NCBI RefSeq assembly: GCF_003991155.1
Contig: NZ_CP031293.1
Reading direction: 5' to 3' (one strand)
Length of the DNA: 64,000 nt
Source: Escherichia coli
Lineage (GTDB): Bacteria > Pseudomonadota > Gammaproteobacteria > Enterobacterales > Enterobacteriaceae
Part shown: positions 819 through 45,814 of the stretch, in pieces
Position numbering within the stretch: the first letter of the stretch is position 1
Layout of the letters: each line of letters opens with the position of its first letter
The notes under the pieces: model-generated
The model's database searches: none
What the model saw: the letters and a program-made list of their open reading frames with translations, nothing else
What the model was told of the DNA's origin: nothing
Program-made: the position numbers and the translations under genes

Positions 819-832
819 CAGAGGATGCATTG

Positions 833-3800: not shown

Positions 3801-4891
3801 TGCTGATGCTTGGTTATGACCCTGAGCAGTTTGAAGCTGTTGATCGGCAAATGTACTCCGGTTCTCGTATGGGAGATGACAAGCACAAAATCGATCGATA
3901 TGGCAAAAAGTACGGCTGGATAGCTTACTTCGAGATGTGGGGGATACGATACGCGCAGGGCCTCCTTTCCGAAGAACGCAGTGCTCGCCCATCAGATGCT
4001 GATATCGATCCAACGTTTCCGCAAAAAGTAGAGAGTATTAGTTTGTCACTCCCAGTCTTATTTAACGATCCGTCTGTGGATGATGGTGACTGGATCGTGG
4101 GAGGCCCGCTACCTGACTACCGTAGCATCCTTGAGATTACGGAGGTTGATGGTCTGACGGGGCCATGGATCCTACTTGACGGTTTTGTTGAGCAAAATGC
4201 TACCTCGGATGACCGACAGATTTTCACTTTCCTGCGAGGAGTATTCGTAGATAGCCAAGAAGTTGACAATCTATGTAGGTTGTTCATTGATCTTGAATAT
4301 CCTGGCAATAGCGCCATCCCTGATGCTCCTGGCTACTATTACACCTATGCGGGTGAGATGCCTTTCCCGACTATTCCGGGGCTGCTAGTCGCTAATGAAC
4401 AAGAGGATGATAGCGATGAAAATTTGGTGTTCGCAGAAAGATGGTCAGGCAATGGCGTTGCGGTAGATATCACAGTGCAGGACTACAACTGGGAGAGCTA
4501 CCATAGCGTGGAGAACCAAAGCAGCGGTGCGAGCCTGCCCTCAAAGCAACTTTGTGAGGCTTTGAATCTCAGATACTGTGCAAACAAATGGGATTTGCAT
4601 GATGCTGCAGGTGTAGCGTCACTTTACCGCAAAATTGACGAAAATGGTTCGGACGTCAGTGGCTCTGTCAGCTATCTACGTCGTGATCTACTTGACCGCT
4701 ATTTGATGCAATCCGGTAAGGTATTGGTATGGCTTATGTGGGGAGAGCGTGGTTTTCATTACCGGTCCAACAAGACACGCAATTTGCACAGGTATTACGT
4801 GAATCACCAACATATTCACAAGCGTATTCATATCCATCAGATAGCTTCGAGTACTAGTAACCCAAATATTGCGGATGGAGTCGCTATATGA
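833..4891 (+). CDS. STAND-class P-loop NTPase, Avs/NLR-like, with N-terminal Mrr-like (PD-(D/E)xK, QxK variant) nuclease-type domain
   Basis: Walker A-like AAAGEGKSELA and Walker B-like IPIVIDGLNEAED (the hhhhDGLNE form typical of NACHT/STAND NTPases); N-terminal NFENLCRALV...GWQCKWY resembles the Mrr catalytic core; long C-terminal region. ORF track starts at TTG 815; first ATG is 833. Confidence 0.55.
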   Translation: MPEVNWKVFNELPGAADVNFENLCRALVRRHYGRFGRFKQLANQPGVEFHLELTEPCDLGAPPGWIGWQCKWYELVNGQDLGASRRNKIIEGIEKTRKHVPGVTNWKLWTHHTLTKGDQEWFFALEQDRFPELKLELLTATDIEDLLVGPGALLRETYFGELVLTPELIAEQYKLAVAPFKNRYQPDVHVAVGAEENIFRHLCSQNAWESLEELSNALKKNHTSIASVTEQLKTELRAEVELLLARVIGLTEFIDGLHAALGKGDFNSVYQALVSNPRQPVRYDRLLSKLRGARFDGAPLTANLVADIHAVSSVLRSLEQSISARAVAVLAAAGEGKSELAVKVTQPEGAFLGGILLLGKNLHSGQGLDDLVSAFKISGRPAESFDRLIEAVDAAGQRAGKRIPIVIDGLNEAEDPRNWKDELSRVDELLKNFPYVLLVVTLRNEFAQMCLPEGFPQVEHNGFQEDPKTAFDKYFEYYKIDATDADLPVELLQHPLTLRIFCEVANSPRQHIVGVEALPRSLASLFEAHFNKVAARVAELSPTMHRIYQDDVQDALLTIAGLLWDNNARSVDFQATRMAVRDMGWDDSIIRALESEGILVRTISPEGRQGVAFAYDLMAGHMMARNLLMKPELVQWLQSDEGNAKFKSHGPDSHTFAYDVLRALVDLYPQHSGRRQLWQDLSDDILVMNALLLTTQSDPRYIGRATVERFAQAMQESKRFAQLAFERLRSTRAALAHPFDMSFLHDVLMAMSNTQRDLFWSEWIRQKSEQVKDDLKFLSTRWKSGHLDERELRRVRWVMWTLTTTSRALRDMATKALYEFAIRRPEEFFRLATETIVVSDPYVPERVFAAAYGAVLTTWSDIDAVELHDALPRFAREIYQTMFAPGATAPTWHALHQQYCLGIIAIARMVDPNCFSEDEAVYLLPPFSHLPNVFESIQPYDPEMIGRAESAAIQMDFGNYTIGGLIPDRANYDDSNPEYQQVLQAIVSRMLMLGYDPEQFEAVDRQMYSGSRMGDDKHKIDRYGKKYGWIAYFEMWGIRYAQGLLSEERSARPSDADIDPTFPQKVESISLSLPVLFNDPSVDDGDWIVGGPLPDYRSILEITEVDGLTGPWILLDGFVEQNATSDDRQIFTFLRGVFVDSQEVDNLCRLFIDLEYPGNSAIPDAPGYYYTYAGEMPFPTIPGLLVANEQEDDSDENLVFAERWSGNGVAVDITVQDYNWESYHSVENQSSGASLPSKQLCEALNLRYCANKWDLHDAAGVASLYRKIDENGSDVSGSVSYLRRDLLDRYLMQSGKVLVWLMWGERGFHYRSNKTRNLHRYYVNHQHIHKRIHIHQIASSTSNPNIADGVAI

Positions 4892-5049
4892 GTTACGACT
4901 TCAGAAATCTTTCATCCGCAAACTTTGAGGATCTTGTGCGGGATCTTATCGAAAAAGAAGAAGGGTTCGCTTCGAAGCATTCTCTGTGGGGGCTGATAAT
5001 GATATTGATGGCCGACACGCACATGCTGGAGGGAATGTCAGTTTATAGG
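4888..5049 (+). pseudogene. 53-codon remnant beginning a Mrr-like nuclease domain, ATGA-coupled to the STAND gene stop
   Basis: ATG 4888 overlaps the STAND stop (4889-4891); MSYDFRNLSSANFEDLVRDLIEKEEGF parallels the N-terminal motif of the upstream STAND protein, then terminates early; followed by about 1.2 kb AT-rich ORF-free DNA. Confidence 0.3.
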
Positions 5050-6264
5050 TAAAACCTTATGAAGGGGCGTCGTTTAGTATACTGATGGCTATTATGAAGT
5101 GTGAGTGGTTGTCTAAAGATAAGCTAGCCCTCACACGCTGTATCAAGCGACCTCTTGTTAGCTTACTCCAGCTAGCAAGAGTAAACTTTCCCCACTCATA
5201 GGGCTATGTTTGAAGTCCGAGTCGGAAATTGGGGGGCAGAAGACATAAAAGGTCTCCTTAAGAAGTCTTCTTGTCTGTACAAAAACTCTTATTTTGACAA
5301 AGAGCATTGTAGTTATTAACAGGCTGATTAATAAATTTAAAAATAAGTCGTCAGGAACACCAGATTAGCTACCCAAATTCTCATGCCGTGGAAGCGGAAG
5401 AAAAATACTCCCCTGAATATCTTCATATCGGATATACATAATAAGCTTGAGGTTGTATATTTGAAGAATTGAGTAGCCAGAGCCTTGTTGACATAAAGCG
5501 ACACGAACAACATGTTACTTAAAATATCACGAGTATATATTCAGACTTGTTTATGTTGCGACATGGATTCTACAGGCAGCTGGCTGAAACAGTGAGTCAG
5601 AAAAATTTACAGGAGCGCCATAGTCATTAATGGATATCCGTAATATGCTGATGCAAAAGGGTAAGGAGTTTGCCGGTAATCTGCGGTGTTAGACGACAAT
5701 TACAAAACGACCTTAGGCGTCAATTACCGCTGAAAAAAGTGACAGATCACTTTCTATAAAATGCTGCCGTATGACCGACAGATTTATTCCGCTTTATAGC
5801 CATGACTGTTCGGTGCTCACTTCGCTGCGCTCCGCCTCAGTCCTGCCTAAAAAGCGTTGCAGGTTAGTTTGTATCGGCCTAATGAAAGGCTGTTTTAGCG
5901 AAGCGTAAATGTGACATCTTATCTGGTCTAATCTCTTTGCGATAATTGACGCAAAAGCATGGGCTGTAATTGTCACGCAATACTGCGGCAAGTCTCATGA
6001 TGATGCCTCTGACAGGGATCTCCGTAGCCATTAACTGGTCGATTGGTAAGCTAAAACAAAAAAATTGAATTTGTCAAGACAGCCATAATGACTACCATTT
6101 TCGTCTCTGCTTTTCCATCCTGAAATTAATGGCTATCATATTCGCAATAGACAACATCATCTTACTTGCACTCAACTATAACTAATGCTGAGTGCAAGAA
6201 ACGGGGATTATATCCCCTATCAAGGACCTGTTGAAATATTAGTCTGGAATTTCGAGGCTGTAAT

Positions 6265-6789
6265 TTAAATTGCTCCATTTGCCTTAGCATCAAGAATGAA
6301 TTTTTCATACTCGCGTTCTGCAACAACAACAGGGACTGTTTTGCGATTATATAATTGCATTAATAACAATGTACGATGCCTTCCATCAGAAACACCAAAT
6401 TCACTGTTAGATGCCTCTGGATATTCAACATACCCTTTTGATATATATTTTTTGATTTTATGCCATCTACGCGGATCAATGCAGAATGCTCCATCTCCTA
6501 ATTTTTTAAGAAAGGCTAGCCCATCGACATATACAATCCTGGTAGGACAATGCCGATAGCGTACAGGAAGGGTAAAGATAATATTTTCAAAAACAGGGAA
6601 AGTAAGACCTGAATCATCTTTAGGTATTGACTCAAAGGAATCAAAAGGATATTTTGTCATGTAATCATTTAGTTTTTCAATATCCATATTGGAAAACCAC
6701 GATACTTCCGGGAGAAATTTTTTATCTCTTTCTCTAATTTCTTTGATCGAATCTCCAAATATATCATCTAACCTCCACCCCTCTTTCAT
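6265..6789 (-). CDS. hypothetical protein with C-terminal ParB/Srx-like DGRHR motif
   Basis: 174 aa; GVSDGRHRTLLLMQL near the C-terminus resembles the DGxHR signature of ParB/sulfiredoxin-fold nuclease domains; AT-rich gene downstream of an Rhs immunity gene. Confidence 0.45.
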   Translation of the reverse strand: MKEGWRLDDIFGDSIKEIRERDKKFLPEVSWFSNMDIEKLNDYMTKYPFDSFESIPKDDSGLTFPVFENIIFTLPVRYRHCPTRIVYVDGLAFLKKLGDGAFCIDPRRWHKIKKYISKGYVEYPEASNSEFGVSDGRHRTLLLMQLYNRKTVPVVVAEREYEKFILDAKANGAI

Positions 6790-6833
6790 TTATGCTCCTA
6801 AAATAATGTGATATTAAAAATTCTGTTAATAAG

Positions 6834-7349
6834 TCAAATTTTATGAATACTAATAAGGGGTTTGCACCACTCAACCGAGAGAATATCTTCCATTTTATAA
6901 AAAACGCCATAATCACTTTGATTATAATGCTCAATTTTATCAGCCATTTGTAATCTAATTTTGTCTTTGTAAATTCTACTTCGGATCAAACTGGCGAAAT
7001 TATATATATCAACCCTCAGATTGATAATATTATTTCTATCTGGGCGTCTTTCATGTAACATATCACGAAAAGAAACAAGTAACGTAATTAATTTTTTAGC
7101 CTCATTATTTTTAATATATCCTTTTTTAAAGATGCATAATATTAATTTTGAAATTAAGCTGATTTTTATTTGTAAATTATAGATAGCATTATCGTTTGTC
7201 AGGCAGGTTATGACTTCAATTACTTCACGTGAGCGAATATAATTGTCCAGTGCTTCCCATTCATCCATTCCTCGATGCATTGAAAGTTCCAATTGCCTTA
7301 AAAAAGCATATAACCCCAATAAGAAGTCGCTATTGCAGTATATTTTCAT
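6834..7349 (-). CDS. putative Rhs immunity protein (cognate to orphan Rhs-CT at 7346-8737)
   Basis: 171 aa, AT-rich, immediately downstream of the Rhs-CT gene with a 4-bp ATGA overlap; family not recognised. Confidence 0.5.
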   Translation of the reverse strand: MKIYCNSDFLLGLYAFLRQLELSMHRGMDEWEALDNYIRSREVIEVITCLTNDNAIYNLQIKISLISKLILCIFKKGYIKNNEAKKLITLLVSFRDMLHERRPDRNNIINLRVDIYNFASLIRSRIYKDKIRLQMADKIEHYNQSDYGVFYKMEDILSVEWCKPLISIHKI

Positions 7350-8737
7350 GAATCACATCCTTTAATAAAACTCATTATTCGTGACCAAAAAGAGTCTTTT
7401 TTGTATATAGGGTTTTTATCGTTTAATGGTAAAGGATCGTCTGTTGGTATAACGGCTGTATTTCTTGGCCCAACATTTGTTTTAGTAAGTGAATCTTTGG
7501 AAGCATCAAACTCTACATAAGAACCATTCTTCCATGCCCCTGTTTCTGCACCTGCCGTTTTAGGATCTCCAAATGGCTCCACCTCAACGTGTACACCAAC
7601 AGGATTGCCTCTGGCAGGGTTGATAGACCCATCCTTGCTAATTCCATCAATACCCTCTGTTGAAGTATGATGTCTAACTCTAACAGTATCGTCACCAGTT
7701 AACCCTAACGGATCAATAATTTTTAGCGGATTAAATACATATCCATACAGGCAATCCCCACCTCTCAGCCCCATCGGATCAGCACACAGATACTGCCCCG
7801 TATCGCAATCATAATACCTGAATCGGTTATAGTACAGGCCTGACTCAACATCCTCGTACTGCCCCGGAAAACGTAACCGGCATGTGGGCGCATCTTCTTT
7901 ACTGATGCCTTCCTCACGCCCCCAGAGCTGCTGCTTGCCTTTCCAGACTATCAGACCCTCTTCGGTCAGCAGTTCTTGTACGCGGCCAGTTGTGTCTGTT
8001 ACCGCATAATGCAGTTGCCCCTTTTCATAACGCGCAAACGGCGTGAAATCTCCCGGCTCGTATATCCAGCGGATGGCGTTTTCATCTTCCGGTTTGCCGT
8101 CAGCGCCAACCGGAATTTCCGCCGTCAACTGGTCGCCGTTCCAGTGAAAATCCATGCCGCGTTTGTCGCGGCTGGTACAGCGCTTGCTGATGCGCCTGCC
8201 GAACGGGTCATACTTATATTCCCAGCGTTCGCCCTCCGGTGTTTCCAGTCCGGTCAACTGGCTGCGTGCATCCCATTTATAACGCCATTCCAGTGGGCGA
8301 TAACCCCCTTTATCCACCAGTTTCTGTACCAGCCTGCCGTTAACATCATATTTCCAGGTGATGTTGTGCGCATTCACCACCCGGACAAATCTCCCGTCTT
8401 CCCCTTTTCCGGTGTCCGGGTTGATGCGATGCGTCGAGTGCCGCCAGCCTTCATGTTCCCGCGATACCACACGACCATGCTGCTGTTGCTGGTGCGTCTC
8501 GCTTTCCAGTACGTTATTCACCCTGATCTGGCGACGGGTAATGTTCAGGTTTTTATCGTAAGTGAACAGCTCCTCGCACAGCGGAAACTGGCTGGAATCA
8601 CCCGTCCAGGTGGCGTGGCTTATCTGGTCGTTTGCCGTGATGGTGTTGAACATGGAGCCGCGCAGCGAGTCGGCGATTGCGGTGAGGTTATACGCTTTGT
8701 CGTAGCTTCGCTGCGTCGGGAGGTTTCCATGCCGCAC
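7346..8737 (-). CDS. orphan Rhs C-terminal fragment: end of YD-repeat core plus variable C-terminal toxin domain
   Basis: YD-repeat-like segments (YKYDPFGRR, WIYEPGDFTP) and the core-terminating motif YYNRFRYYDCDTGQYLCADPMGL...DPLGL, followed by a ~115-aa unrelated C-terminal domain; GC-rich core against AT-rich tip. No full-length Rhs N-terminus upstream. Confidence 0.75.
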   Translation of the reverse strand: MRHGNLPTQRSYDKAYNLTAIADSLRGSMFNTITANDQISHATWTGDSSQFPLCEELFTYDKNLNITRRQIRVNNVLESETHQQQQHGRVVSREHEGWRHSTHRINPDTGKGEDGRFVRVVNAHNITWKYDVNGRLVQKLVDKGGYRPLEWRYKWDARSQLTGLETPEGERWEYKYDPFGRRISKRCTSRDKRGMDFHWNGDQLTAEIPVGADGKPEDENAIRWIYEPGDFTPFARYEKGQLHYAVTDTTGRVQELLTEEGLIVWKGKQQLWGREEGISKEDAPTCRLRFPGQYEDVESGLYYNRFRYYDCDTGQYLCADPMGLRGGDCLYGYVFNPLKIIDPLGLTGDDTVRVRHHTSTEGIDGISKDGSINPARGNPVGVHVEVEPFGDPKTAGAETGAWKNGSYVEFDASKDSLTKTNVGPRNTAVIPTDDPLPLNDKNPIYKKDSFWSRIMSFIKGCDS

Positions 8738-8850
8738 AGGTCGTGCTCAAATGTCAGCGGGGCATGGTCCGCTATTCGCCATGACGTAAGATGCCCCATC
8801 AGGTCGCGGGTGAAGCGTTCTGTGATACCCTCAGCCTGTAATTTTACAGG

Positions 8851-9285
8851 TTAAATGGGGAATTTTTCTTCAATGAGCTTCAAGCCAAGTAATGCCATAT
8901 CATGAATATCTTCATCATGCGATTGAGCCGAAATTTTCAACCCGTTTACCATTCTTTTATCTGGGAAAGACATTGTTAATATAGTACACCAAAGCCTAAC
9001 GCTTTTTATTGTGTTAGGATTTTCGAGTATGTTAACGATATTTATAACAACATCATTAAAATCACACTTATAGAGAAAATCCTCAACAATTTGATATACT
9101 CCAAGACCATCACCCTCACCAAAAGATCGCAAAAATAAAGGTATTGCATCTTTATCGGGATGGGAAAGAAAGTAAATTCGTACCTCATCGTATTTATCTA
9201 TAAGATCCTGAGTAATATCACAATCCGCGGGCATTGGTTGATGTAGTGACAGGAACTCTAATGCTTCTTTTTTATTCATATTCAT
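8851..9285 (-). CDS. putative Rhs immunity protein (cognate to the IS-truncated Rhs-CT at 9282-9763)
   Basis: Small ORF starting immediately after the upstream toxin stop; likely start at the internal Met (MNMNKKEALEF). Confidence 0.45.
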   Translation of the reverse strand: MNMNKKEALEFLSLHQPMPADCDITQDLIDKYDEVRIYFLSHPDKDAIPLFLRSFGEGDGLGVYQIVEDFLYKCDFNDVVINIVNILENPNTIKSVRLWCTILTMSFPDKRMVNGLKISAQSHDEDIHDMALLGLKLIEEKFPI

Positions 9286-9763
9286 ATATTTAATGATTCC
9301 CAAAGTTTTTTATTCTGTCTGGCTAACTCATATAGTTGTTCAGTGATGACCTTTTTATCATAGCCTGCATTTGTTAAGATTTTTCTTAGGTCATCTATAT
9401 CCCTTTTCAAATATTGTTCTTTTGTCAAACCTCGAACAAATGCTCGTCTGAATGTCCAGGTAAGAGCATGTAAATCTTTACGCAGATTTATCGTAATTCC
9501 CTTACATTTTGTTGTGGGGCTTACCGCATCCTGAATGGCATGATGAGGTGTATGAGTTGCATTAAGCCCTGTTTTACCATTCGCATAAATTGAAGAACCA
9601 TATGTACCAACGTATAAATCTTCTCCTGGACCAGCTAACAATCCCAAGGGATCAATCCATACCAGTGGATTTGGAGCGTAATTGTAAAGGTTTACTCCCC
9701 CCGACAGTCCAATCGGATCAGCACACAGATACTGTCCTGTCTCGCAATCATAGTACCGGAACC
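9282..9763 (-). pseudogene. Rhs core tip plus C-terminal toxin domain, 5'-truncated by the IS3-family element
   Basis: Rhs-derived coding begins at RFRYYDCETGQYLCADPIGL...DPLGL exactly at the IS left terminus (9764); the annotated Met and first ~16 codons are read from IS terminal sequence. C-terminal domain of unknown family. Confidence 0.65.
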
Positions 9764-11013
<1,250 letters not shown>

Positions 11014-11016
11014 CCA

Positions 11017-11385
11017 CTACAATGAGAGCATAAGTACACCTGCCGTCATTTCTGGTACGGCAACGCCCCCCGGTGTATAAGCTGTCCCGTTAATGATGAT
11101 GTCACAGGCGGGTTTCAGGGGGGCGAGGTCGCTTTCGCGCAGTACCGGAGATGTGTTCATCTCCCCGGCATACTCATCTTCCACACACAGCGGTAGCGGC
11201 GGGTTTTCGATAAGTTGGGTTTGCCACTGACCATTTTCGTCCCGTTGCAGCCGGAAGCCCGTTTTCATGGCGATAACGCGGTGACGTTCGCTATGTTTAT
11301 CATCCATCGCATATTCTATCGCTGAAAACGGCGTCAGGTTACGAAATTCCATATTGCACCCCGATCCCGTCTGTACCTGTCGCAA
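11017..11385 (-). pseudogene. N-terminal fragment of a gene truncated at the IS right end
   Basis: ORF runs into the IS right terminus and hits a stop inside the inverted repeat. N-terminus MEFRNLTPF... is tentatively reminiscent of T6SS-associated DUF2169-type proteins, from memory only. Confidence 0.35.
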
Positions 11386-11790
11386 AACATAATTCTACAG
11401 ATGGCACAGTATCCCCCTGATACAGGTAAAAACTTATTTCACGGAAACCGGCATAGCAAACTGGATGACACAATACCGGGCAAAACGATAAGTATGGTTA
11501 CTATATGAAACGGAATACTCCCGTTTCGTATTATTTTTTTTGACTGATATCAACGGGACGAATTAACTGACAGGATATTTACTGGAAAGTGTCTGCATAT
11601 TGCTCAATATATTTTTAATGGAAATGTATTCTCCATTAATATTTATGGTGTGATTGTGTTTCCCTGTGTGTCAGCTTCCGCTAAACCCCTTGCTGCAAAT
11701 TACCGATCATTGTATTGTTGCGCCGCGCCTGCAAAATCAGGCGTCGGGATTGGAACCCTGATAAGTGTTACAGGCGACATATAGCGCATT

Positions 11791-12426
11791 TTGCGTCTTT
11801 TTTATGTCGTGCGTCTGGCTGCATCTCAATGGTGGGCTGGACGGGGGCGTCGCAAGACGCGCCGGTTTCCTGTAACACCGGTAGTTCCAACCCCGTTCAG
11901 TTCACCACCAATGAGATTGGAACCTCTGGTGGTGGAATTACCACCCGTTACAGGAGGCTATCCTATGGTTATCATCCTTTCCCCTGACTGCGACTTACTT
12001 TCCATCCCCTTCAGTGCCACCACGGATTTCACCGATCTGGCCGACTACTGCGATCGCTTCGCTGAAACCCTGATCGAATGCCACGATCCGGCGCTGAAAA
12101 TGGCGCTTTATGGCAGGATCAACGCCAGCCTTGCGCTGCTGCGTCCCTCGTTGGGCGAGCCGATCCCGCTGCACCTGATCGACCGTTTCATTGTGGACAC
12201 GCTTCCCGACGTTTCACCGCGCTTTGAACCCGGCGCAGGGCTGCTCTGTGACTACTGTCTGGCGCTGACGCAGGTATTAAGCGGGCGGTCGCTGCTGCCG
12301 GAAACCGAAACCACACTGACCGGGTTGCTGTGCGAACTGGTCTGGTATTTTGCCGCCGACCTTAAAGCGCCGCAGTGGCTGCGCACCGCTGATGGCTTAC
12401 AGGTTATTGACGGGGGGACGGTATGA
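11791..12426 (+). CDS. hypothetical protein, translationally coupled to the downstream Ner-like gene
   Basis: GC-rich ORF whose stop overlaps the Ner-like start (ATGA at 12423-12426); true start uncertain. Confidence 0.35.
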   Translation: MRLFYVVRLAASQWWAGRGRRKTRRFPVTPVVPTPFSSPPMRLEPLVVELPPVTGGYPMVIILSPDCDLLSIPFSATTDFTDLADYCDRFAETLIECHDPALKMALYGRINASLALLRPSLGEPIPLHLIDRFIVDTLPDVSPRFEPGAGLLCDYCLALTQVLSGRSLLPETETTLTGLLCELVWYFAADLKAPQWLRTADGLQVIDGGTV

Positions 12427-12677
12427 TGCAACCGGACTGGCATCCCGCCGATATCATGGCAGCACTGCGAAAACGTGGTACGTCGCTGGCAGCGGTTTCC
12501 CGCAAAGCGGGACTGGCGTCCGCCACACTGGCAAACGCGCTGAGCCGCTCCTGGCCGCGTGGCGAAAAACTCATTGCGGATGCGCTGGAAACATCACCGG
12601 AAATTATCTGGCCGTCCAGATATTTCGATGATCAGGGCAACCGTATTGTAAGGCTCATGCGAAAGCAGTGCTCCTGA
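12423..12677 (+). CDS. Ner/Nlp-family DNA-binding protein
   Basis: DWHPADIMAALRKRGTSLAAVSRKAGLASATLANALSRSWPRGEKLIADAL...IWPSRY matches E. coli Nlp / Mu Ner closely from memory. Confidence 0.8.
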   Translation: MMQPDWHPADIMAALRKRGTSLAAVSRKAGLASATLANALSRSWPRGEKLIADALETSPEIIWPSRYFDDQGNRIVRLMRKQCS

Positions 12678-12796
12678 TGACAGAAGTGTCAGAAACACGA
12701 TTACAGTAAAATCAGGCTCTCCCGGCTCTCTGCCTGCTTCTGCTGGCGGAGAGCCGGGAGAAGACAAGCGAAGCGCGGCAGGATGCCATCCCGCTG

Positions 12797-13099
12797 TTGA
12801 TAACAGTCACAACCGGAGTCGTTTTTATGCACATGTTTAATCCACCCCATCCGGGTGACGTCCTTCGCGATTATCTGGACGGCGTGAGCATCACGCAGGC
12901 CGCTTCCCGGCTTCAGGTATCGCGCTCGCGGTTATCCCGTATCCTCAATGGACATGCACCAGTGACGGCTGATATGGCGCTACGTCTGGCGGCGCTGCTG
13001 AATACCCGCGCTGAACTGTGGACGGGGATGCAGTCTGAGTATGGCCTCTGGCAGGCGTCACAAAAACCACGACCCGTTATCCGGTCATTGCGGGGTTAA
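12797..13099 (+). CDS. HigA-family HTH (XRE-type) antitoxin-like protein, no adjacent HigB-like toxin ORF
   Basis: NPPHPGDVLRDYLDGVSITQAASRLQVSRSRLSRILNGHAPVTADMALRLAALLNT...ELW is the HigA/VapI pattern; likely start at internal Met (12827 or 12833). Confidence 0.7.
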   Translation: MITVTTGVVFMHMFNPPHPGDVLRDYLDGVSITQAASRLQVSRSRLSRILNGHAPVTADMALRLAALLNTRAELWTGMQSEYGLWQASQKPRPVIRSLRG

Positions 13100-13186
13100 C
13101 TCAGCATTTTACATTCACAAATACACGATAAAATCAGGGGGAAAACCAATATCCAGAAAAATGAGTTTCCCCTTTCTGCGCCAGAA

Positions 13187-15521
13187 ATAACGGTGTAATC
13201 TCCCTCCTGCATTGTCGCCTTCGGGCACCCTTTGGCTTCATGGTCTGCAAGAAGCCCCTGATTTATCAGGATGACCAGCCCTTACTACCGGTACGACCTC
13301 CGCAATACCGGAACGCGAAAGCGTTTGAGGCTAAGAGTACATACACCCGAACGGCTTCATCGTCATTGCTTAACGGCAACAGTCTTCACCGGCTGAACGG
13401 CTTTTCTTTGCCGGAATTTCCCGACTGCCCCATACCCAGCTGAAAACAGCGCCCTTTACATGACGGGCTGCGGCCTGCATTGCCGTCAGGCTTTGCTGCC
13501 GCGTGACCGTCATTCTGCACCAGAAACGCAACGTTTACCCCCTGCACCAGATGAGGCGTCACTTTGGTCGCGCCAGCGAAAAAGCAAAGTGACGCCGTAC
13601 AACATACCGCCGCAAGCCGCGCCAGTTCTGGCCTGCGTCCTGTTTCCGCCGTCTGACATGCCCTTTGGGGCGCTGTCAGTCCAGAGTAAAGGAGAAAAAG
13701 ATCGATACCGAGGGGGGCACGACGCCCCGGAGATACCCCTGCTTCGTCAGGCAGTCTGTACCGCGTACAGCCTGAAACTCCCTAAACCTCAACAATCAGC
13801 CACTCCGGCGTGAAGGTATCGTTCTGGCGCAGCCAAAAAGCACACGCCGGAGACTGTTTGTTTTTTGTTGCAGGGGGTAGTTATGAGCAAATTAAGCAGT
13901 GAAATGAAGGCGCTGGCGAAAAAAGCAGGCGGTAGTTTCAGAACGGTGGACTACCGTATCCATGCCACGAAGCGGTTCAGTCAGCATTTACGCGAACTGA
14001 ATATTCAGATCCAGCGGGTGGAGCAGATCAAAGTTCGCCATATCGAATGCTATATTCAGGAGCGGCTGGAGCAGGATATTGGCCTGCGCACGCTGCAAAA
14101 CGAAATGGCGGCGCTGCGGGCCGTGCTGAGGCTGGCGGGACGCCGGCAGGTGGTGGAGCATCCGCGCCTGACCAATAAGGCGCTGGGGCTGTCAGGTGCT
14201 TCGCGCAACGGCACGCGTCGCGCCATCACGCCGGAACATTATGAAAAAGTGATGGAGAACGCCCGCGCACAGGATGCGGGGCTGGCGGCAGCGGTGGAGA
14301 TCGCGCGACTGATGGGATTACGCTCGCAGGAGGCGGTACAGAGTTCACAGTCGCTGAAAACGTGGCTGAAAGCCATTTCCCGCGGCGAAACCCGGCTGAA
14401 AGTGGTGTTTGGCACCAAAGGCGGGCGTCCGCGTTACACGACGCTCCTGGACGCTGGCGCAGTCAGGAAGGCGGTGGAAAACGCATTACCGATCGCCAGA
14501 CAGCGCAATGGCAGGCTGATCGACAAGCCAGACCTTAAAACGGCGCTGGAGAGCTGGCACAAACAGGCCATTAAGGCGGGGCTGAAAGGGGAATTTTCCC
14601 CGCACTCGCTGCGTTATGCGTGGGCGCAGGACGCGATCCGCCATTATCTGGCGCAGGGATTCAGCGAAAAGGAATCGCTGGCGCTGACGGCGACGGATCT
14701 GGGTCATGGCGACGGTCGCGGCCGCTGGGTGAAACAGGTGTACGGCTACCGCTGGAAGGAGGAATAACGGCTTTCATGAATGGCGCAAAATAGTACGTTA
14801 CTGCGTAACGACAGCGATTTATCGTACCCTCTGTACCGGATCTGGCGCAGGGGGCGAGCGGGTTTGTATTGTGAAAATATCGTTACAGCATGACGAATAA
14901 ATATCAATAGCTCAGATTTTCCTGCTGAACCAATGTAGCTCGCCGGAATATTATAGTGATTACCCGGTAATCACTCGAAACGATCCCGATTAATAGCTGG
15001 TGTTTCAATCGTTTTACCGATATTACAGGTACAGGGTCGGGAAATTTTAAAATGTAAACTCACCGAGGCATCACATTAATTCTGGCGCAGGATTATATCT
15101 GAATAATTCTCTCTGTGTTTTCCTGCATCCTGTGACATATATTGCATGGTCACAGAATGTCTCATGATTTTATAAAAAATGCTGCGACGGTTTTTGACAT
15201 CATAACCTGCTGCATATAGATTAATAATTTTCGGTGCTTCATGTTATTTTTTTGCGCTCTGTGATCGTTATCTGGTGGTGAAAATACAATCTGGTGCAGA
15301 CTGTCATGGTGCATTTCTGAATAAACTGGTTGCGCCAGAAAGGGAAAGGGCCATAAAGGTTAAGGGGCGATAAGGGTAACAGCGCCTGACCGGAAAGGGC
15401 CGAAAACCAAAGAGCCAGAAACTGGCGCAGTCCTGAATGTGTGAAGTGGCGAGACGCTGGCGCAGATAACCGATCTTCCGGGGCTGGTGCAGATTATTTC
15501 GTCTCTGTATATCTGGTGCAG
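13187..15521. repeat. dispersed array of at least 10 copies of the decamer TCTGG(C/T)GCAG
   Basis: Copies at 13187-13195 (inverted), 13823-13832, 14841-14850, 15081-15090, 15289-15298, 15330-15338 (inverted, degenerate), 15421-15430, 15456-15465, 15483-15492, 15512-15521; mostly in non-coding DNA flanking the integrase-family gene. Confidence 0.7.
13883..14767 (+). CDS. tyrosine-recombinase (phage integrase) family protein, short form
   Basis: C-terminal FSPHSLRYAWAQDAIRHYL...GRWVKQVYGY has the HxxR...H...Y pattern of tyrosine recombinase catalytic domains; AGGGGG Shine-Dalgarno precedes ATG 13883. Confidence 0.5.
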   Translation: MSKLSSEMKALAKKAGGSFRTVDYRIHATKRFSQHLRELNIQIQRVEQIKVRHIECYIQERLEQDIGLRTLQNEMAALRAVLRLAGRRQVVEHPRLTNKALGLSGASRNGTRRAITPEHYEKVMENARAQDAGLAAAVEIARLMGLRSQEAVQSSQSLKTWLKAISRGETRLKVVFGTKGGRPRYTTLLDAGAVRKAVENALPIARQRNGRLIDKPDLKTALESWHKQAIKAGLKGEFSPHSLRYAWAQDAIRHYLAQGFSEKESLALTATDLGHGDGRGRWVKQVYGYRWKEE

Positions 15522-15579
15522 TTATAATATGTATCAGGGAAGGCTGTCCGGTATTTTATGACGCCTCTTTTAGAGTATA

Positions 15580-15654
15580 TTAATTGGTATTTCCGTGAAA
15601 ATATCGCTTATTGATAGTTTTTCATCTTCCGTGATTAACGCGTTAATCACGGAA
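15580..15654. promoter_or_regulatory. two adjacent palindromes (candidate operator or hairpin sites)
   Basis: Perfect 30-bp palindrome CTTCCGTGATTAACG/CGTTAATCACGGAAG, then an inverted repeat TACCTATCAA(N11)TTGATAGGTA. Confidence 0.4.
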
Positions 15655-15776
15655 GACTGTTACCTATCAAAAAAAGATATATTGATAGGTAACGGTCAAA
15701 TTTTATTTGGGGCCAAATAATTGTAGATACTTTCCGATTGGTAATAAAAAAGAACAACGGCAATACCTCTCAATAC

Positions 15777-15814
15777 AAAAAAGCAGATCCCGGCCAATCA
15801 GGATCTGCTTTTCC
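15777..15814 (-). terminator. intrinsic terminator downstream of the P4-type integrase reading frame
   Basis: Inverted repeat AAAAGCAGATCC...GGATCTGCTTTT followed on the minus strand by a T-run. Confidence 0.55.
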
Positions 15815-15841
15815 ATTTTAATGATTTCAGCTATTTATGAC

Positions 15842-17104
15842 TCAGGCTGCCTTATGCTGCCGCGCATAAATATACGGCGCGACATACCCCTCGCGGCACA
15901 CATCCAGATAATCCGACCACCACTGCATCATGGCCTTTCTGGCCTCCAGATGCTCCGCTTTATGCACATAGGCCGCCCGCACGCTGTTACGCTCCTAGTG
16001 GCTCATTTGCCGTTCCACCGTATCGCGTGACCAGAGATCCGACTCTACCAGGGCGCTACAGGCCATTGCGCGAAGTCCATGTCCGCACACATCGGTTTTC
16101 GTATCATACCCCATCAGGCGCAGCGCCCGGTTGGTTGTGTTTTCGCTCATTGGCTTGTACGGGTTATGGTCGCCGGGGAATACCAGATCCAGATGGCCGG
16201 AAAGCTCCTGTATCTGTTTCAGAATGGCAATCGCCTGGCGGGAGAGTGGCACGATATGCGGACTACGCATTTTTGCGCCACGCCCCGAAAACCGTACTTT
16301 GTCGATGGCCTCGCGGGTGGCGGGGATGGTCCAGATTTTGTGCCTGAAATCAATCTCGCTCCAGCGGGCGAAACGCAGTTCGCTGGAACGGATGAACAGG
16401 TGCAGTGTCAGCACCACCGCCAGCCGGGTTAACTCCCGGCCCTGCCGGTAATCGCCAATACGATCGAGCAATTCAGGCAACCGCTCCAGCGGTAAAGCGG
16501 GATAGTGATTCTTGACGGGAGAGGCGACTACACCATCCAGATGCTGCGCCGGGTTGCTTTCGGTCAGTCCCTGCTGAACGGCATAGCGCATGATGTTGCT
16601 GAGTTGCTGCCGGGTTCGGGACGCGACTTCCAGAAAGCCCTTATCCTCAATAACCCGCAGCAAAGCCGTGAAATCCTGCGTTTTAAGCGCAGCAACGGGC
16701 AGATGACCAATCGCCGGGAAGATATGGTTTTCCATACTGGCGAGAATACGGGCGGCATAATCAGCCGACCATTTTTTGTTGGTTTTGTGCCAGGCCAGCG
16801 CCACCGCCTTAAAGCACTTTTCAGGGGAGCAGGCGGATTTCTCTGCCATACGCTGTTGCGCCGGGTTGATATTCTGCGCCAGTAGCTTGCGGATACCGTC
16901 GCGCTGTTGCCTGGCTTCTGCCAATGAGACAAGCGGATATGCGCCAAGACTGACTCTGGATTCTTTTCCGTTGAAACGATATTTGAGATACCAGATGCGT
17001 GAACCACCCGGATTGACGAGCAGATACAGACCCTGAGAGTCGGAGAGTTTTACCGGACGGGAAGAAGACTTTAACTTGCGGATTTTAGAATCGTTTAAAG
17101 ACAT
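15842..17104 (-). pseudogene. P4-type tyrosine integrase interrupted by an in-frame amber codon (TAG at 15995-15997)
   Basis: N-terminus MSLNDSKIRKLK...GLYLLVNPGGSRIWYLKYRFNGKESRVSLGAYP is P4-integrase-like. Translation stops after ...VERQMSH, but the same frame continues ERNSVRAAYVHKAEHLEARKAMMQWWSDYLD... to a stop at 15842-15844; the catalytic-Tyr region lies after the amber. Confidence 0.75.
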
Positions 17105-17265
17105 TTGGGGGTCACTCCAGAATCGAACCAAACTGACCCCAGATCTGACCACCAAATTATCCCGATGCGGAGAGAAAATTAGATACGCACCGGGAAGGAT
17201 TTTCACGCTAACTTACTGAATCGTAAACAAATAGAGACGCATAGATAAGCATGAAAACTTGAATT

Positions 17266-17341
17266 TGGCTCCTCTGACTGGACTCGAACCAGTGACATAC
17301 GGATTAACAGTCCGCCGTTCTACCGACTGAACTACAGAGGA
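17266..17341 (-). tRNA. tRNA-Asn (GUU)
   Basis: 76-nt reverse complement of TCCTCTGTAGTTCAGTCGGTAGAACGGCGGACTGTTAATCCG...GGAGCCA; anticodon loop CUGUUAA. Confidence 0.95.
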
Positions 17342-17441
17342 ATCGTGAGAACGAGGCGAATATTAGCGACGCTCATCCACAATGTCAAAGCCTGTTTTTT
17401 AAATTTGAAATCGTTTGCTGAAATAATCTGCACTTTGTCGT

Positions 17442-19088
17442 TTATTCCGACACAACTGGCTTTTTTTCACACTTTTGCGGCTCAGGTCGAGGATATTTCC
17501 ACAGCCAACGTCCAGTAACCATTCGCCAGTAAAACAGCACGGCCCGCACAGCCCAGTCGGCAAACATTCCCATCCAGACACCAACTACACCCCAGCCAAG
17601 CATGATTCCCAGCACATAACCGACTACAACCCGGCAACCCCACATGCTCAACATAGAAACCCACATGGCGTAACGTGCATCGCGAGCACCCTTAAATCCA
17701 GCGGGTAGCACCCATGAGGCAGACCAAATAGGCATAAATAAAGCATTTAGCCAAATCAGAATCACAACGACATGTTTAACCTGTGGATCCTGGGTGTAAA
17801 ACGATGCCATAACCCCGGCAAAGGGAGCCGTTAGCCAGGCGATGGCCGTTAATCCAAGAGTGGACAGCCAGAACACATGCCGCAACTGAATCTCTGCTTG
17901 CGCTATCTGCCCTACCCCCAACCTTCGGCCTGTAATGATCGTAGAAGCAGAGCCGAGCGCACTTCCGGGTAAGTTGATAAGAGCCGCAATTGAAAACGCG
18001 ATAAAATTTCCGGCAATAACACTGGTCCCCATCCCGGCAACGAACATTTGGGTTAATAACCGACCACTGGTAAATAACACTGATTCGACACTCGCTGGAA
18101 TACCAATCCCCATGACTTCCCAGATAATGCTAAAATTCAGCGGGTTAAAATAGCTCTTTAACGAAATTCTTAGCGCAGGATTAAAACCAATCGCCAGCAC
18201 CCACAAAATTGCAACTGCGCCAATATAACGAGAAATGGTTAAACCCAACCCAGCCCCGACAAATCCCAGTCCCGGCCAGGAGAAAAGGCCGTAAATCAAT
18301 ATGCCGCTAATAATAATATTAAGAATATTCAGGCTACCGTTAATCAGTAGCGGTATTTTCGTATTCCCTGCACCACGAAGTGCCCCGCTACCAATCAAAG
18401 TGATGGCAGCTGCTGGATAACTGAGTACCGTCAGCTCCAGATAAGTCAACGCCAGTGCTTTAACTTCTGTCGTGGCATCACCCGCGACGAAATCAATAAT
18501 TTGTTCGCCAAAATGATGAATAAGCGTTGCCAACAGTACGGCAAACAACGTCATGATCACCAATGACTGCCGCGTCGCCACCCTCGCTCGTCGTCGATCC
18601 CGCTTACCGAGACAAAATGCCACAACGACAGTAGTACCAAGATCGATAGCAGCAAAAAAAGCCATAATGACCATATTGAAGCTGTCCGCCAATCCCACGC
18701 CGGCCATCGCATCTTTTCCCAGCCAGCTGACCAGAAAAGTGCTCAGGACCCCCATCAACAGGACACAGGCATTCTCCATGAAGATAGGAACAGCAAGCGG
18801 GGTTATCTCGCGCCAGAACAACACTTTGTAGCTCTTGCGTTTAGCGTGCCAGCGAGTGCCGTGAACAACCTGGCGTAAAGCAGAGGAGATATTCAAAGCC
18901 GACCTTAATTGCAGAAAGTGAAACCACATTTCAAATAATGAGGGAGAATCAGCAAAGCTGCAAAGATTTTCGCCAACAAATTGTCTGCAAATGCAACAAA
19001 CTGTTGATAGAAACGGCAAACGGTTGGGAAATTTAAAAATCGGGTTTGACAAAAGATTTTTCGCCGTTAAGATGTGCCTCAACAGCAA
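17442..19088 (-). CDS. yeeO: MATE-family efflux transporter YeeO
   Basis: 548-aa polytopic membrane protein in the yeeO position between two tRNA-Asn genes; N-terminal ~60 codons are not membrane-like, so the true start may be internal. Confidence 0.75.
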   Translation of the reverse strand: MLLRHILTAKNLLSNPIFKFPNRLPFLSTVCCICRQFVGENLCSFADSPSLFEMWFHFLQLRSALNISSALRQVVHGTRWHAKRKSYKVLFWREITPLAVPIFMENACVLLMGVLSTFLVSWLGKDAMAGVGLADSFNMVIMAFFAAIDLGTTVVVAFCLGKRDRRRARVATRQSLVIMTLFAVLLATLIHHFGEQIIDFVAGDATTEVKALALTYLELTVLSYPAAAITLIGSGALRGAGNTKIPLLINGSLNILNIIISGILIYGLFSWPGLGFVGAGLGLTISRYIGAVAILWVLAIGFNPALRISLKSYFNPLNFSIIWEVMGIGIPASVESVLFTSGRLLTQMFVAGMGTSVIAGNFIAFSIAALINLPGSALGSASTIITGRRLGVGQIAQAEIQLRHVFWLSTLGLTAIAWLTAPFAGVMASFYTQDPQVKHVVVILIWLNALFMPIWSASWVLPAGFKGARDARYAMWVSMLSMWGCRVVVGYVLGIMLGWGVVGVWMGMFADWAVRAVLFYWRMVTGRWLWKYPRPEPQKCEKKPVVSE

Positions 19089-19089
19089 T

Positions 19090-19165
19090 TCCTCTGTAGT
19101 TCAGTCGGTAGAACGGCGGACTGTTAATCCGTATGTCACTGGTTCGAGTCCAGTCAGAGGAGCCA
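19090..19165 (+). tRNA. tRNA-Asn (GUU)
   Basis: Sequence identical to the minus-strand copy at 17266-17341, ends in CCA. Confidence 0.95.
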
Positions 19166-19169
19166 AATT

Positions 19170-19203
19170 CAAAAAAGCCTGCTTTCAAGCAGGCTTTTTG
19201 CTT
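19170..19203 (+). terminator. intrinsic terminator after tRNA-Asn
   Basis: AAAAGCCTGCTTTCAAGCAGGCTTTTTGCTTTC stem-loop plus T-run. Confidence 0.6.
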
Positions 19204-19220
19204 TCTAATTACCAACGCTC

Positions 19221-20156
19221 TTAAAACATCTGTCTTGAACCAGAACTAATTTGCACAGGCATTCCCGATCGACGTTGCAACGCAGCATTTGCGCGATTTA
19301 CATCAACTTCTTGCCCGTTGATAAACGCCCGCAAAGATGGGGTTACCGGCAATGGTACTTTTCGGTCAGACTCATATTCTGCACGATTGCGCGACAGCGG
19401 CTCATGAACTTCCAGCCACTTTGAACCATCCGGTTCCGTTGTGTATTTCACTGGCTGATCAATAATTTGTACACGAGTGCCTACAGGAACATTATCAAAC
19501 AGATATTTGATATCGTCATTGCGCAGACGAATACAGCCCTGACTTACCCGGAGCCCAATACCAAAATTGGCATTGGTACCGTGGATGGCATATAGCCTGC
19601 CAATATAAATCGCATACAGCCCCATGGGATTATCAGGCCCCGCAGGAACAAATGCGGGCAAACTCTCCCCTCGTTTCGCATATTCGCGCCGAGTGTTCGG
19701 CGTTGGCGTCCAGGTTGGAGCTTCTTGTTTACGTTCAACGGTAGTCACCCAGTTACGCGGGGTTTCTCGCCCAGCCTGGCCGATACCAATAGGAAAGACT
19801 TCCACAGTATTACTGTCTGGTGGGTAGTAATAAAGACGCATCTCAGCGACGTTAACCACAATCCCTTTACGAACAGTGGCGGGCAAAATCAGTTGCTGCG
19901 GAATGGTGAGTTGCGAACCTGACTTCGGCAAGAAAACATCAGCGCCCGGATTCGCTTCCAGCATGTTACTTAACCCTTGCCCGTATTGTGCGGCAAAAGT
20001 CTCCAGCGGCTGGGTATTGTGATCAGGAACAGTTACAGTAAACGACTGCCCCACTAAACGGCTACCCTCTGGAGGTAATGGATAAGTTACCGCCAGGCTA
20101 GTATGGCTGGCAAAAAGCAGAGCAAATGAGCAAAGAATATTTACACGACGCATCAT
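19221..20156 (-). CDS. ldtA: L,D-transpeptidase LdtA (ErfK)
   Basis: 311 aa with signal peptide; YkuD-type domain motifs ([19 protein letters not shown]); position upstream of cobT as in E. coli. Confidence 0.8.
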
Positions 20157-20217
20157 GTCCCTTTCCTATGTCGCGAAAGCTATCCATTAAGTATAGCTTT
20201 TATCAGACTTTTCGTTT

Positions 20218-21297
20218 TTAACTGTTCAAATCAGAAGTCGTATTCCCCGGTAGAACAATATTACTGGCAGCAAGTTCGCCCATGTTGTTGTATATCGCAC
20301 AAGCAGCTTCGATGATGGGCATCGCCAGAGCTGCGCCACTCCCCTCACCTAAACGCATCTCCATATTGAGATAAGGCTCCAGCCCCAAATGCGACAGCGC
20401 TATACGCGCCCCTTTTTCTGCCGACAGGTGAGAAGGAATGAGATACGGTTTGATTGCAGGAGACATCTGGCAGGCTGCGAGCGCAGCAGCATAAGAAAGA
20501 AATCCATCCAGCAACACGGGTAAACCGCAGGAAGCAGCGCCTAACATCACGCCAGCCATTCCGACCAAATCAAATCCACCCACTTTTGCCAGAACATTAA
20601 CGCCATCCTGCGGATTTGGCTGATTCAACGTAATCGCCCGGCGCACAACATCAATTTTATTAGCCAGTTTATCTGTCGGCAGGTTTGCGCCAATCCCAAC
20701 CACTTCTTCAGGATCCCGGCCAGTGATTGTGCTGACTATTGCTGCTGCCGGTGTCGTGTTTGCCATCCCCAGTTCACCTACACCAAACAGCGTGACACCG
20801 TTTTTTGCCAGCTCCCGCGTATAACATATGACGTCCAAAAGCAACTTTTCAGCCTGACGGCGACTCATTGCCGGAGCTGAAGCAATATTGCCGCTACCTC
20901 GTGCGACACGCATGTTGATAAGCCCGGGGATAGGCTCAGCAGTATCAATACCAACATCAATTACGTGGACGTTAGCGCCCGCTTGTGCTGCCAGCACACA
21001 CACGCCGGTTGTTCCGCGGGTCATATTTTCAGCCTGAATGGCTGTGACTTCTTTTGGGGAAATAGCGACCCCTTCCTCCCAGACGCCGTGATCGGCACAC
21101 ATAACCAGTACCGCTTTTTTGCCCACATGCGGTATGCCATTCAACCCCGGCATTCCCGCCAGTTGTACGCCAAGCGCCTCCAGCCTTCCCAGGCTACCAA
21201 CAGGTTTGAGTAACCCGTCAATATGCCGTTGTGCACGCGACATAGCGGCAGGATCGATGGCAGGGATCGTATTCAGTAAATTGGCAAGTGTTTGCAT
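20218..21297 (-). CDS. cobT: nicotinate-nucleotide--dimethylbenzimidazole phosphoribosyltransferase CobT
   Basis: 359 aa; N-terminus [19 protein letters not shown]... and gene order cobU-cobS-cobT. Confidence 0.85.
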
Positions 21298-25576: not shown

Positions 25577-26009
25577 AGTGACACCTTCTTTACGGAGTTT
25601 TTCTTTATCAGCCAACTATGCGCTGATTGTTGTGTATACCGAGCGCAACTATAAAAAATTGCTCTGCAGAAAATATTGCCAACATGCATGACAGACTCGT
25701 GTAAAAATCGTGCTAACATAACAAATTATTGTCATTGCCGAATCATGCAACACAGCTTTAATCAGTGTTGAAGTAATAATTTCCACCAAACTTTTACAAT
25801 AAAAAATTGCCATCATGACATAATAAAATTGAAACAAATATCACAGTTCCTTCCTCGAACCAAACTCAACGAAATATTATTCGCGATTAAACTCACTAGC
25901 CAACGCAATTAATTCACATTGAAACATCCACAAAACAACCAATAAATTAACAACATATAGTTCATAAAAGCAATTTTATTATATTTGTTCTCTAGGTAAT
26001 GACTCCAAC

Positions 26010-26513
26010 TTATTGATAGTGTTTTATGTTCAGATAATGCCCGATGACTTTGTCATGCAGCTCCACCGATTTTGAAAACGACAGCGACTTCCGTCCCAGC
26101 CGTGCCAGGTGCTGCCTCAGATTCAGGTTATGCCGCTCAATTCGCTGCGTATATCGCTTGCTGATTACGTGCAGCTTTCCCTTCAGGCGGGATTCATACA
26201 GCGGCCAGCCATCCGTCATCCATATCACCACGTCAAAGGGTGACAGCAGGCTCATAAGACGCCCCAGCGTCGCCATAGTGCGTTCACCGAATACGTGCGC
26301 AACAACCGTCTTCCGGAGCCTGTCATACGCGTAAAACAGCCAGCGCTGGCGCGATTTAGCCCCGACGTATCCCCACTGTTCGTCCATTTCCGCGCAGACG
26401 ATGACGTCACTGCCCGGCTGTATGCGCGAGGTTACCGACTGCGGCCTGAGTTTTTTAAATGGCGGAAAATCGTGTTGAGGCCAACGCCCATAATGCGGGC
26501 GGTTGCCCGGCAT
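26010..26513 (-). CDS. insB: IS1 InsB (transposase catalytic part; InsAB' by -1 frameshift at the A6C motif)
   Basis: 167 aa InsB sequence; TTTAAAAAAC motif present on the coding strand. Confidence 0.9.
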
Positions 26514-26707
26514 CCAACGCCATTCATGGCCATATCAATGATTTTCTGGTGCGTACCGGGTTGAGAAGCGGTGTAAGTGAACTGCAGTTGCCATGTTTTA
26601 CGGCAATGAGAGCAGAGATAGCGCTGATGTCCGGCGGTGCTTTTGCCGTTACGCACCACTCCGTCAGTAGCTGAACAGGAGGGACAGCTGATAGAAACAG
26701 AAGCCAC
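26432..26707 (-). CDS. insA: IS1 InsA
   Basis: [43 protein letters not shown]...; 91 aa. Confidence 0.9.
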
Positions 26708-26863
26708 TGGAGCACCTCAAAAACACCATCATACACTAAATCAGTAAGTTGGCAGCATCACCTGTTCTCTATTAATTTTTCTCATTAGCCGAGTAAGTCA
26801 GCCATTCTTTTTCCTCGCTTTTTTTTATAGTCATATCGTCAAAAAAATCCAGGCGAGGTCTTT

Positions 26864-45246: not shown

Positions 45247-45300
45247 ATGATGAATGACGGTAAGCAACAATCTACCTTTTTGTTTCACGATTACGCGCAA
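45247..45300 (+). pseudogene. sbcB: 5' remnant of sbcB (exonuclease I) at the prophage junction
   Basis: ATGATGAATGACGGTAAGCAACAATCTACCTTTTTGTTTCACGATTAC encodes MMNDGKQQSTFLFHDY, matching the SbcB N-terminus from memory, then diverges into ...AQHP-stop. Confidence 0.55.
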
Positions 45301-45775: not shown

Positions 45776-45794
45776 CCCGCAGTTTTCATGCGGG
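45776..45794 (-). terminator. intrinsic terminator downstream of the tailspike gene
   Basis: CCCGC-N9-GCGGG hairpin followed on the minus strand by a T-rich run. Confidence 0.5.
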
Positions 45795-45814
45795 ATATAC
45801 TGCATTTATTGCAA

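Follow-up and report, generated by a model that had tools for sequence, protein, structure and literature searches.

In Escherichia coli K-12 MG1655, the genes cbl and nac are located between two tRNA-Asn genes in the order asnW(-), yeeO(-), asnU(+), cbl(-), nac(-), asnV(+), ldtA(-), cobT, cobS and cobU. Cbl and Nac are regulators of sulfonate-sulfur and nitrogen-limitation genes. In the stretch of DNA analyzed here (64 kb, referred to as the window), yeeO is followed by a single tRNA-Asn gene and then by ldtA, and a 2.4-kb segment with cbl, nac and one tRNA gene is missing at this place in comparison to K-12. This raises the question whether the two regulators were lost, were never present at this locus or are located elsewhere. 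The K-12 order on which the original prediction was based agrees with that of MG1655.

Exactly two tRNA genes were detected in the 64-kb window by ARAGORN. Both are tRNA-Asn(GTT) and match the K-12 genes asnT, asnU, asnV and asnW over 76 nt (Table 1). A BLAST comparison with the K-12 locus gave no match for cbl or nac in the whole window, which confirms the single tRNA-Asn between yeeO and ldtA. YeeO is identical to the K-12 protein in 493 of 495 residues, and 55 bases separate the second tRNA from the ldtA open reading frame. The region from 16900 to 20400 is present with 100% identity in many complete genomes.

Table 1. Features of the window around the yeeO-ldtA junction and of the adjacent island 3.
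Feature	Position	Strand	Evidence
Island 3 at asnW, about 18 kb	1-17265		annotation of the 100% identical STEFF_1 stretch
Avs2-type NTPase, island 3	833-4891		Avs2 match
IS3, island 3	9836-11013		STEFF_1 annotation
Integrase-domain gene, island 3	13883-14767		STEFF_1 annotation
P4-like integrase pseudogene, island 3	15842-17104	-	internal stop
tRNA-Asn(GTT), asnW position, attL of island 3	17266-17341	-	ARAGORN and flank comparison
asnW upstream flank, promoter-like site TTGACA-17-TAATAT at 17388-17360	17342-17441	-	sequence
yeeO, MATE exporter, intact	17442-18929 (RefSeq CDS); ORF 17442-19088	-	ORF and annotation
asnU-type upstream flank, promoter-like site TTGACA-16-TAAGAT at 19046-19073	19010-19089	+	flank comparison
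Hybrid tRNA-Asn(GTT), asnU 5' context and asnV 3' context, recombination junction	19090-19165	+	ARAGORN, flank identities
asnV-type downstream flank, terminator hairpin 19172-19199 shared with convergent ldtA	19166-19220	+	sequence
ldtA (erfK), intact, followed by cobT-cobS-cobU as in K-12	19221-20156	-	ORF, K-12 comparison

Since the tRNA-Asn copies of K-12 and of the ST457 lineage described below are identical over 76 nt, the 150-nt flanks were compared to assign each copy to its K-12 counterpart. The upstream flank of the tRNA at 19090 shows an identity of 0.97 to that of asnU and of at most 0.26 to those of the other copies, while its downstream flank shows 0.99 identity to that of asnV and at most 0.31 to the others. 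The gene therefore joins the upstream side of asnU to the downstream side of asnV across one tRNA, the junction that recombination between these two copies generates. Lineage-specific bases of the asnU type reach position -3 and the tRNA itself is identical, which confines the crossover to a tract of about 83 identical bases that includes the tRNA. Both the promoter-like site on the asnU side and the terminator hairpin of asnV were kept. Recombination has left a genuine scar in the single tRNA-Asn that separates yeeO from ldtA, and recombination between identical tRNA copies, as originally proposed, is borne out by this hybrid. The tRNA at 17266 is followed by island DNA. Its upstream flank is that of asnW (0.97 identity to K-12), so that the island-side tRNA occupies the asnW position, in agreement with the original prediction.

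The proposed loss of cbl and nac did not hold. Positions 1 to 17400 of the window are 100% identical to 21 complete genomes, all of which carry cbl-nac at another place. In STEFF_1, where the window begins at record position 2,996,243, the order on the left is serU, mtfA, tRNA-Asn(+), island 1, cbl(-), nac(-), tRNA-Asn(+) and island 2. On the right it continues with yeeJ, yeeL, shiA, amn, yeeN, island 3, tRNA-Asn(-), yeeO(-), tRNA-Asn(+) and ldtA. Four tRNA-Asn genes are kept, and cbl-nac occupies the asnT position, about 45 kb upstream of the yeeO-tRNA-ldtA junction. Both genes are intact in 30 of 30 complete genomes of the ST457 type, to which the 21 genomes belong, and are placed between a type VI secretion system (T6SS) island, island 1, and an RHS island, island 2. 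The window starts inside island 3, and judged from the identical genomes its own genome would carry cbl-nac 26-28 kb in front of position 1. In a BLAST comparison, the moved block aligns collinearly with the K-12 segment that begins with the final 16 nt of asnU and extends to asnV (96.7% identity). Relocated Cbl and Nac are identical to the K-12 proteins in 312 of 316 and 302 of 305 residues, respectively, and contain no stops. The 324-bp region upstream of nac was relocated together with the gene, including the sigma-54 promoter-like sequence CTGGCAAGCATCTTGCAA and NtrC-like sites. As both proteins and the nac control region are intact, a functional effect is not expected, and the rearrangement is probably neutral.

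The flanks of the moved genes reveal their former position. To the left of relocated cbl, a tRNA-Asn 3' remnant of 16-20 nt (attR) is followed by the downstream terminator of asnU, and the tRNA to the right of relocated nac has the upstream flank of asnV. The genes were therefore once located between asnU and asnV. In STEFF_1 the upstream flank of asnT is paired, via island 1 and its attR, with the downstream flank of asnU, and that of asnV, via island 2 and its attR, with the downstream flank of asnT, which is followed by yeeJ. The upstream flank of asnW is paired, via island 3, with its own downstream flank as in K-12; this flank and the attR at the far end of the island (L004 29474-29489) are found after yeeN, about 750 bp before the window start. 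The fourth pair, asnU upstream with asnV downstream, is the hybrid tRNA. The downstream partners of asnT, asnU and asnV are thus cyclically permuted, while every gene has kept its K-12 orientation, which identifies the rearrangement as a block interchange. The swapped blocks comprise 48.1 kb (island 1, cbl, nac and a tRNA) and 45.1 kb (island 2, yeeJ to yeeN, island 3, asnW, yeeO and a tRNA). Very probably, the yeeO-tRNA-ldtA arrangement is one of three joints resulting from this interchange among four identical tRNA-Asn genes in an ST457-typed lineage.

An inversion of the asnW-asnU-asnV region was not found, as yeeO, cbl, nac and ldtA lie on the same strands as in K-12. Routes by inversion alone were discarded by reasoning, since a swap of adjacent blocks needs three inversions and the asnT, asnU and asnV repeats are direct. 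A possible footprint of gene conversion upstream of the tRNA at the asnT position, a G at -18 which matches the asnV upstream flank, is also present in ECONIH1 and was classified as a polymorphism. We take ECONIH1 to belong to ST648 and phylogroup F.

The distribution of the arrangement was analyzed in a collection of 5,426 complete E. coli genomes. About 5,390 of them (about 99%), including ECONIH1, have the K-12 order, and cbl-nac is present in 5,418 and absent altogether in 8. Thirty-four genomes contain the direct yeeO-tRNA-ldtA junction. Twenty-nine of these match the window with 100% identity and show four tRNA-Asn places, whereas four (Esc20, CNR20180903, MEI3O-23 and AH20K059) are plain deletions with three tRNA-Asn genes and without islands. 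These four bear the hybrid of asnU upstream and asnV downstream flanks in three junction haplotypes, and they plausibly make up four of the eight genomes without a cbl-nac match. The last one, SL112, was considered as a partial case and rejected: its locus contains three tRNA-Asn genes, the cbl-nac deletion is internal, and the genome represents a different event. The relocated arrangement, defined by the end of island 1, cbl, nac, a tRNA and the island 2 integrase, was found in 30 genomes. An equal number, 30, is 100% identical over ldtA-cobT, and the next best genome shows 99.1% identity. The bare junction is missing from the 30th genome, UID2309220009, only because its hybrid tRNA is occupied by a yersiniabactin island. 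Assignment of the 30 genomes to ST457 is based on the strains for which literature exists, namely MRY15-117 and MRY15-131 (PMC5430464) and CREC-544 (PMC9860340). ST457 belongs to phylogroup F and is an emerging multidrug-resistant clone (PMC9780897). The original prediction had allowed that the single tRNA might be the conserved state of the lineage. The arrangement is indeed fixed in all ST457-type genomes of the collection, but it is derived within E. coli.

Three islands are located at tRNA-Asn genes in this lineage, and all of them have the features of P4-like-integrase islands. Each of the three tRNAs is followed by an integrase gene at a distance of 160-170 bp, and all three distal island ends carry the attR CCAGTCAGAGGAGCC(A)AATT, an att repeat of 17-20 nt, together with a conserved right arm. 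Island 1 (about 45.6 kb) contains an integrase, relE', IS3, a complete T6SS cluster, RHS/imm genes and ISAs1-type elements, and island 2 (about 10.8 kb) an integrase, relE/antidote, RHS, IS3 and PAAR. Their integrases are intact genes of 420 aa beside the tRNAs. Island 3 also contains RHS fragments and a DUF2169 fragment according to the STEFF_1 annotation. The two upstream tRNA-Asn copies are part of a common repeat of 1,822 bp (tRNA, integrase and relE') with 98.2% identity, in which the mismatches are concentrated at 863-1185. Between sublineages, the integrase alleles show a mosaic pattern of patchy differences, which points to continuing recombination between these repeats. The T6SS island was found in 28 genomes of the ST457 lineage and in no other lineage of the collection; outside the lineage, the best matches reach 85% identity and are located at the yafT/ykfM locus. 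In strain A29, related integrase/RHS islands are present at asnU in native context, so island 1 may have been located at asnU before the swap. An intermediate, or a sister genome with the ancestral order, was not found in the collection, where identity over ldtA-cobT drops directly to the 99.1% mentioned above. Together with the restriction of the T6SS island to the ST457 lineage, this is consistent with island insertion either before or after the rearrangement.

Changes related to IS3 are found within the lineage. Strain 980-2 belongs to a divergent sublineage with the same global order and IS3-related internal changes, and IS3 was probably behind the loss of its T6SS core. In 2016C-3878, the yeeJ-yeeN region was lost between two IS3 copies. 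An origin of the interchange itself through IS3 was rejected: the outer joints are all located at tRNA or att sites, so IS3 explains secondary changes only.

Several other explanations were weighed against the block interchange. A plain deletion, in which recombination between asnU and asnV removed cbl-nac from the window's genome, would leave exactly such a hybrid junction, has occurred in the four deletion genomes and agrees with the lack of cbl and nac inside the window. It is nevertheless very improbable here: all 30 genomes with the junction haplotype of the window have kept cbl-nac and four tRNA-Asn genes, the relocated copy is present in 21 of 21 genomes identical to positions 1 to 17400, and in the collection the complete absence of cbl-nac is limited to the 8 genomes noted above. 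Less credible still is an artefact of assembly, or import of the entire region from a donor. The tRNA, integrase, IS3 and RHS repeats are of the kind that confuses assemblers, but 30 independent complete assemblies from many laboratories agree. Import would only shift the same event into a donor, and the divergence of cbl-nac from K-12 matches that of the neighboring genes (97.1-97.7% identity), so that the genes look native. The least credible alternative, to which we give next to no weight, is an ancestral state in which cbl-nac was at no time located between asnU and asnV in this lineage and the K-12 arrangement arose later. It had been put forward in the original prediction and agrees with the local absence and nothing more; it is contradicted by the tRNA remnant, the asnU terminator and the asnV promoter flank which the moved genes still carry, and by the prevalence of the K-12 order.

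The remaining alternative accepts the interchange and concerns its catalyst. P4-like integrases might have joined the attL of an island at asnU to an intact asnV by aberrant excision, with integration of the resulting circle at asnT. The T6SS island at asnU would then have used asnV as a second att site, taken cbl-nac along as cargo and re-integrated at asnT. The intact upstream integrases beside the tRNAs and the conserved right arm and att repeat of all three islands are in line with this route, as is the yersiniabactin island in the hybrid tRNA of UID2309220009. In addition, tRNA-Asn sites are interchangeable for such islands, since pks has been found at asnU, asnV or asnW (PMC8209727). On the other hand, the junction of an aberrant circle would be without the normal right arm of attP, and the same deletion between asnU and asnV arises in genomes free of islands. 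Integrase catalysis of the interchange is therefore regarded as unlikely, and the excision of the T6SS island with cbl-nac as its cargo appears equally doubtful.

For the block interchange itself, we infer the order of events and the enzyme as follows. The ancestral order would have been mtfA-asnT-yeeJ...yeeN-asnW-yeeO-asnU-cbl-nac-asnV-ldtA, and the present one is mtfA-Asn-[T6SS island]-cbl-nac-Asn-[RHS island]-yeeJ...yeeN-[island 3]-Asn(-)-yeeO-Asn-ldtA. One could be converted into the other by as few as two reciprocal exchanges at direct repeats, either tRNA-Asn or island-integrase repeats. Recombination between asnU and asnV would loop out island 1 with cbl and nac, and the circle would re-enter at asnT; equivalently, recombination between asnT and asnU would loop out the other block, which would re-enter at asnV. 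The same arrangement would also result from an unequal duplication between sister chromatids and two subsequent deletions. As substrates, the exchanges would use the 76-nt tRNA (asnU and asnV are identical over about 83 bases) and, for the joint at asnT, a 1.8-kb repeat that consists of tRNA, P4-like integrase and relE'. The four natural deletions between asnU and asnV indicate that about 83 identical bases suffice and that the first step occurs in nature. RecA-dependent homologous recombination is the likeliest catalyst, with the island integrases as the alternative, as identical tRNA copies would fit both. A circle of 45-48 kb that does not replicate would have little time to re-enter the chromosome, which makes each single event improbable. 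The route by duplication and deletion needs no re-entry of a circle, but three exchanges.

Rearrangements of this kind are known from other systems. In E. coli of phylogroup B2, an inversion of the asnW-asnU-asnV region was tied to acquisition of the pks island (Auvray et al., 2021; PMC8209727). It resembles the ST457 case in the locus, the identical tRNA-Asn repeats, the islands with P4-like integrases and the fixation of the rearrangement in one lineage. In contrast, the B2 event took place between inverted copies and left yeeO, cbl and nac together, whereas in ST457 the genes have kept their orientation, and two blocks, each of about 45 kb, were swapped via the direct copies asnT, asnU and asnV. 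The four deletion genomes have the same hybrid tRNA but only three tRNA-Asn genes and no cbl-nac at the locus, compared to four and a relocated cbl-nac in ST457. The HPI, ICEKp and pks islands at asn tRNA genes also have a P4-like integrase at the tRNA 3' end and a distal direct repeat of 17-20 nt. These are insertions of foreign DNA, while in ST457 the core genes cbl and nac were moved and are now bracketed by islands. In Salmonella Typhi, segments of the chromosome were reportedly rearranged by recombination between rrn operons, as described by Liu and Sanderson. There, too, multi-copy RNA genes recombine and large blocks are reordered without gene loss; the rrn repeats measure about 5 kb and the blocks hundreds of kb, in contrast to the 76-nt tRNA repeats, extended by integrase homology, in ST457. 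Literature searches yielded no description of the ST457 translocation, which appears to be undescribed so far and adds a further case to a known type of event.

The finding corrects a call of gene loss: a pipeline that views the yeeO-ldtA interval alone would score the ST457 lineage as lacking Cbl and Nac, although the two genes, together with their control regions, are intact at another place. The biological effect of the rearrangement is probably small. Its three new joints, fixed in 30 of 30 genomes, would serve as a PCR or in-silico marker for ST457. For the asn tRNA cluster, the translocation joins the published inversion among the rearrangements of this region, with core genes enclosed between islands. 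If excision by an integrase were the true course of events, clustered identical tRNA genes would enable an island to capture core genes and carry them to a new position, and cbl-nac would be part of a composite element of roughly 59 kb (islands 1 and 2 with cbl-nac) which could be mobilised again.

Apart from differences in insertion sequences (IS1 and IS621), the window is identical through position 45295 to STEFF_1, a complete ST457-type genome. In STEFF_1, yeeA carries an IS621 element (L016 22698-23975, a stretch of that genome), which is missing at window 42530-42532. The strain of the window is therefore distinct from STEFF_1, although both are 100% identical elsewhere. The window also carries a P22-like prophage that interrupts sbcB about 48 bp into the gene, whereas STEFF_1 lacks it. 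In the pdu operon, an IS1 copy occupies the control region between pduF and pduA. It is present neither in STEFF_1 nor in 2016C-3878, another ST457-type genome, and this insertion might alter pdu expression.

Coordinates of the features identified in the window
Feature	Position	Strand	Remarks
Avs2-type STAND NTPase	833-4891	+	1,352 aa; PADLOC E = 7.5e-116
IS3	9836-11013
DUF2169 fragment	11017-11352
P4-like integrase of the asnW island	15842-17104	-	pseudogene, one internal stop
IS1 copy	25995-26762		768 bp; 9-bp target duplication; InsA/InsB ORFs
P22-like prophage	45296-64000		continues past the window end
Prophage tailspike	45815-48292
Prophage Ant	48392-49321
Prophage portal	60484-62649
Prophage terminase	62650-63975
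Prophage ejection proteins and coat	within 45296-64000

The Avs2-type gene lies at the distal end of the asnW island, beside genes for a DUF6375 protein and a radical SAM protein (window 411-818 and an ORF cut by the window start), and this cluster looks like an anti-phage defence module. Fragments of type VI secretion system (T6SS) accessory genes (DUF2169, PAAR, RHS) are dispersed across all three tRNA-Asn islands. On either side of yeeJ-yeeN lie IS3 copies that share one sequence and one orientation, the first in STEFF_1 (L004 12310-13487) and the second in the window. In 2016C-3878 the segment between them is gone, and with it the core genes shiA, amn and yeeN; AR Bank #0349 and PK12, judged from partial matches to window 1-17400, probably share this loss.

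Since its integrase is a pseudogene, unlike the intact integrases of both upstream islands, the asnW island is probably immobile. At both upstream tRNA-Asn copies, the integrase genes have a patchwork, mosaic structure (L005 5185-6983 versus L004 4252-6050, both from STEFF_1; L013 from the 980-2 sublineage). In the STEFF_1 pair, positions 1-862 are identical and 863-1185 differ by about 9%. The patches are not the same in the STEFF_1 and 980-2 sublineages. Taken together, this pattern suggests that island ends have undergone gene conversion with one another.

In one ST457-type genome, UID2309220009, the hybrid asnU/asnV tRNA has taken up a yersiniabactin island together with its integrase (L012 6688-8187), and the recombinant tRNA thus still works as an attachment site. 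In K-12, the 70 bp or so that follow asnW downstream share 93% identity with the left arm found in the ST457 islands (L001 3959-4127 versus L005 5161-5330). On the basis of this match, K-12 may hold a remnant of an ST457-like island at asnW.
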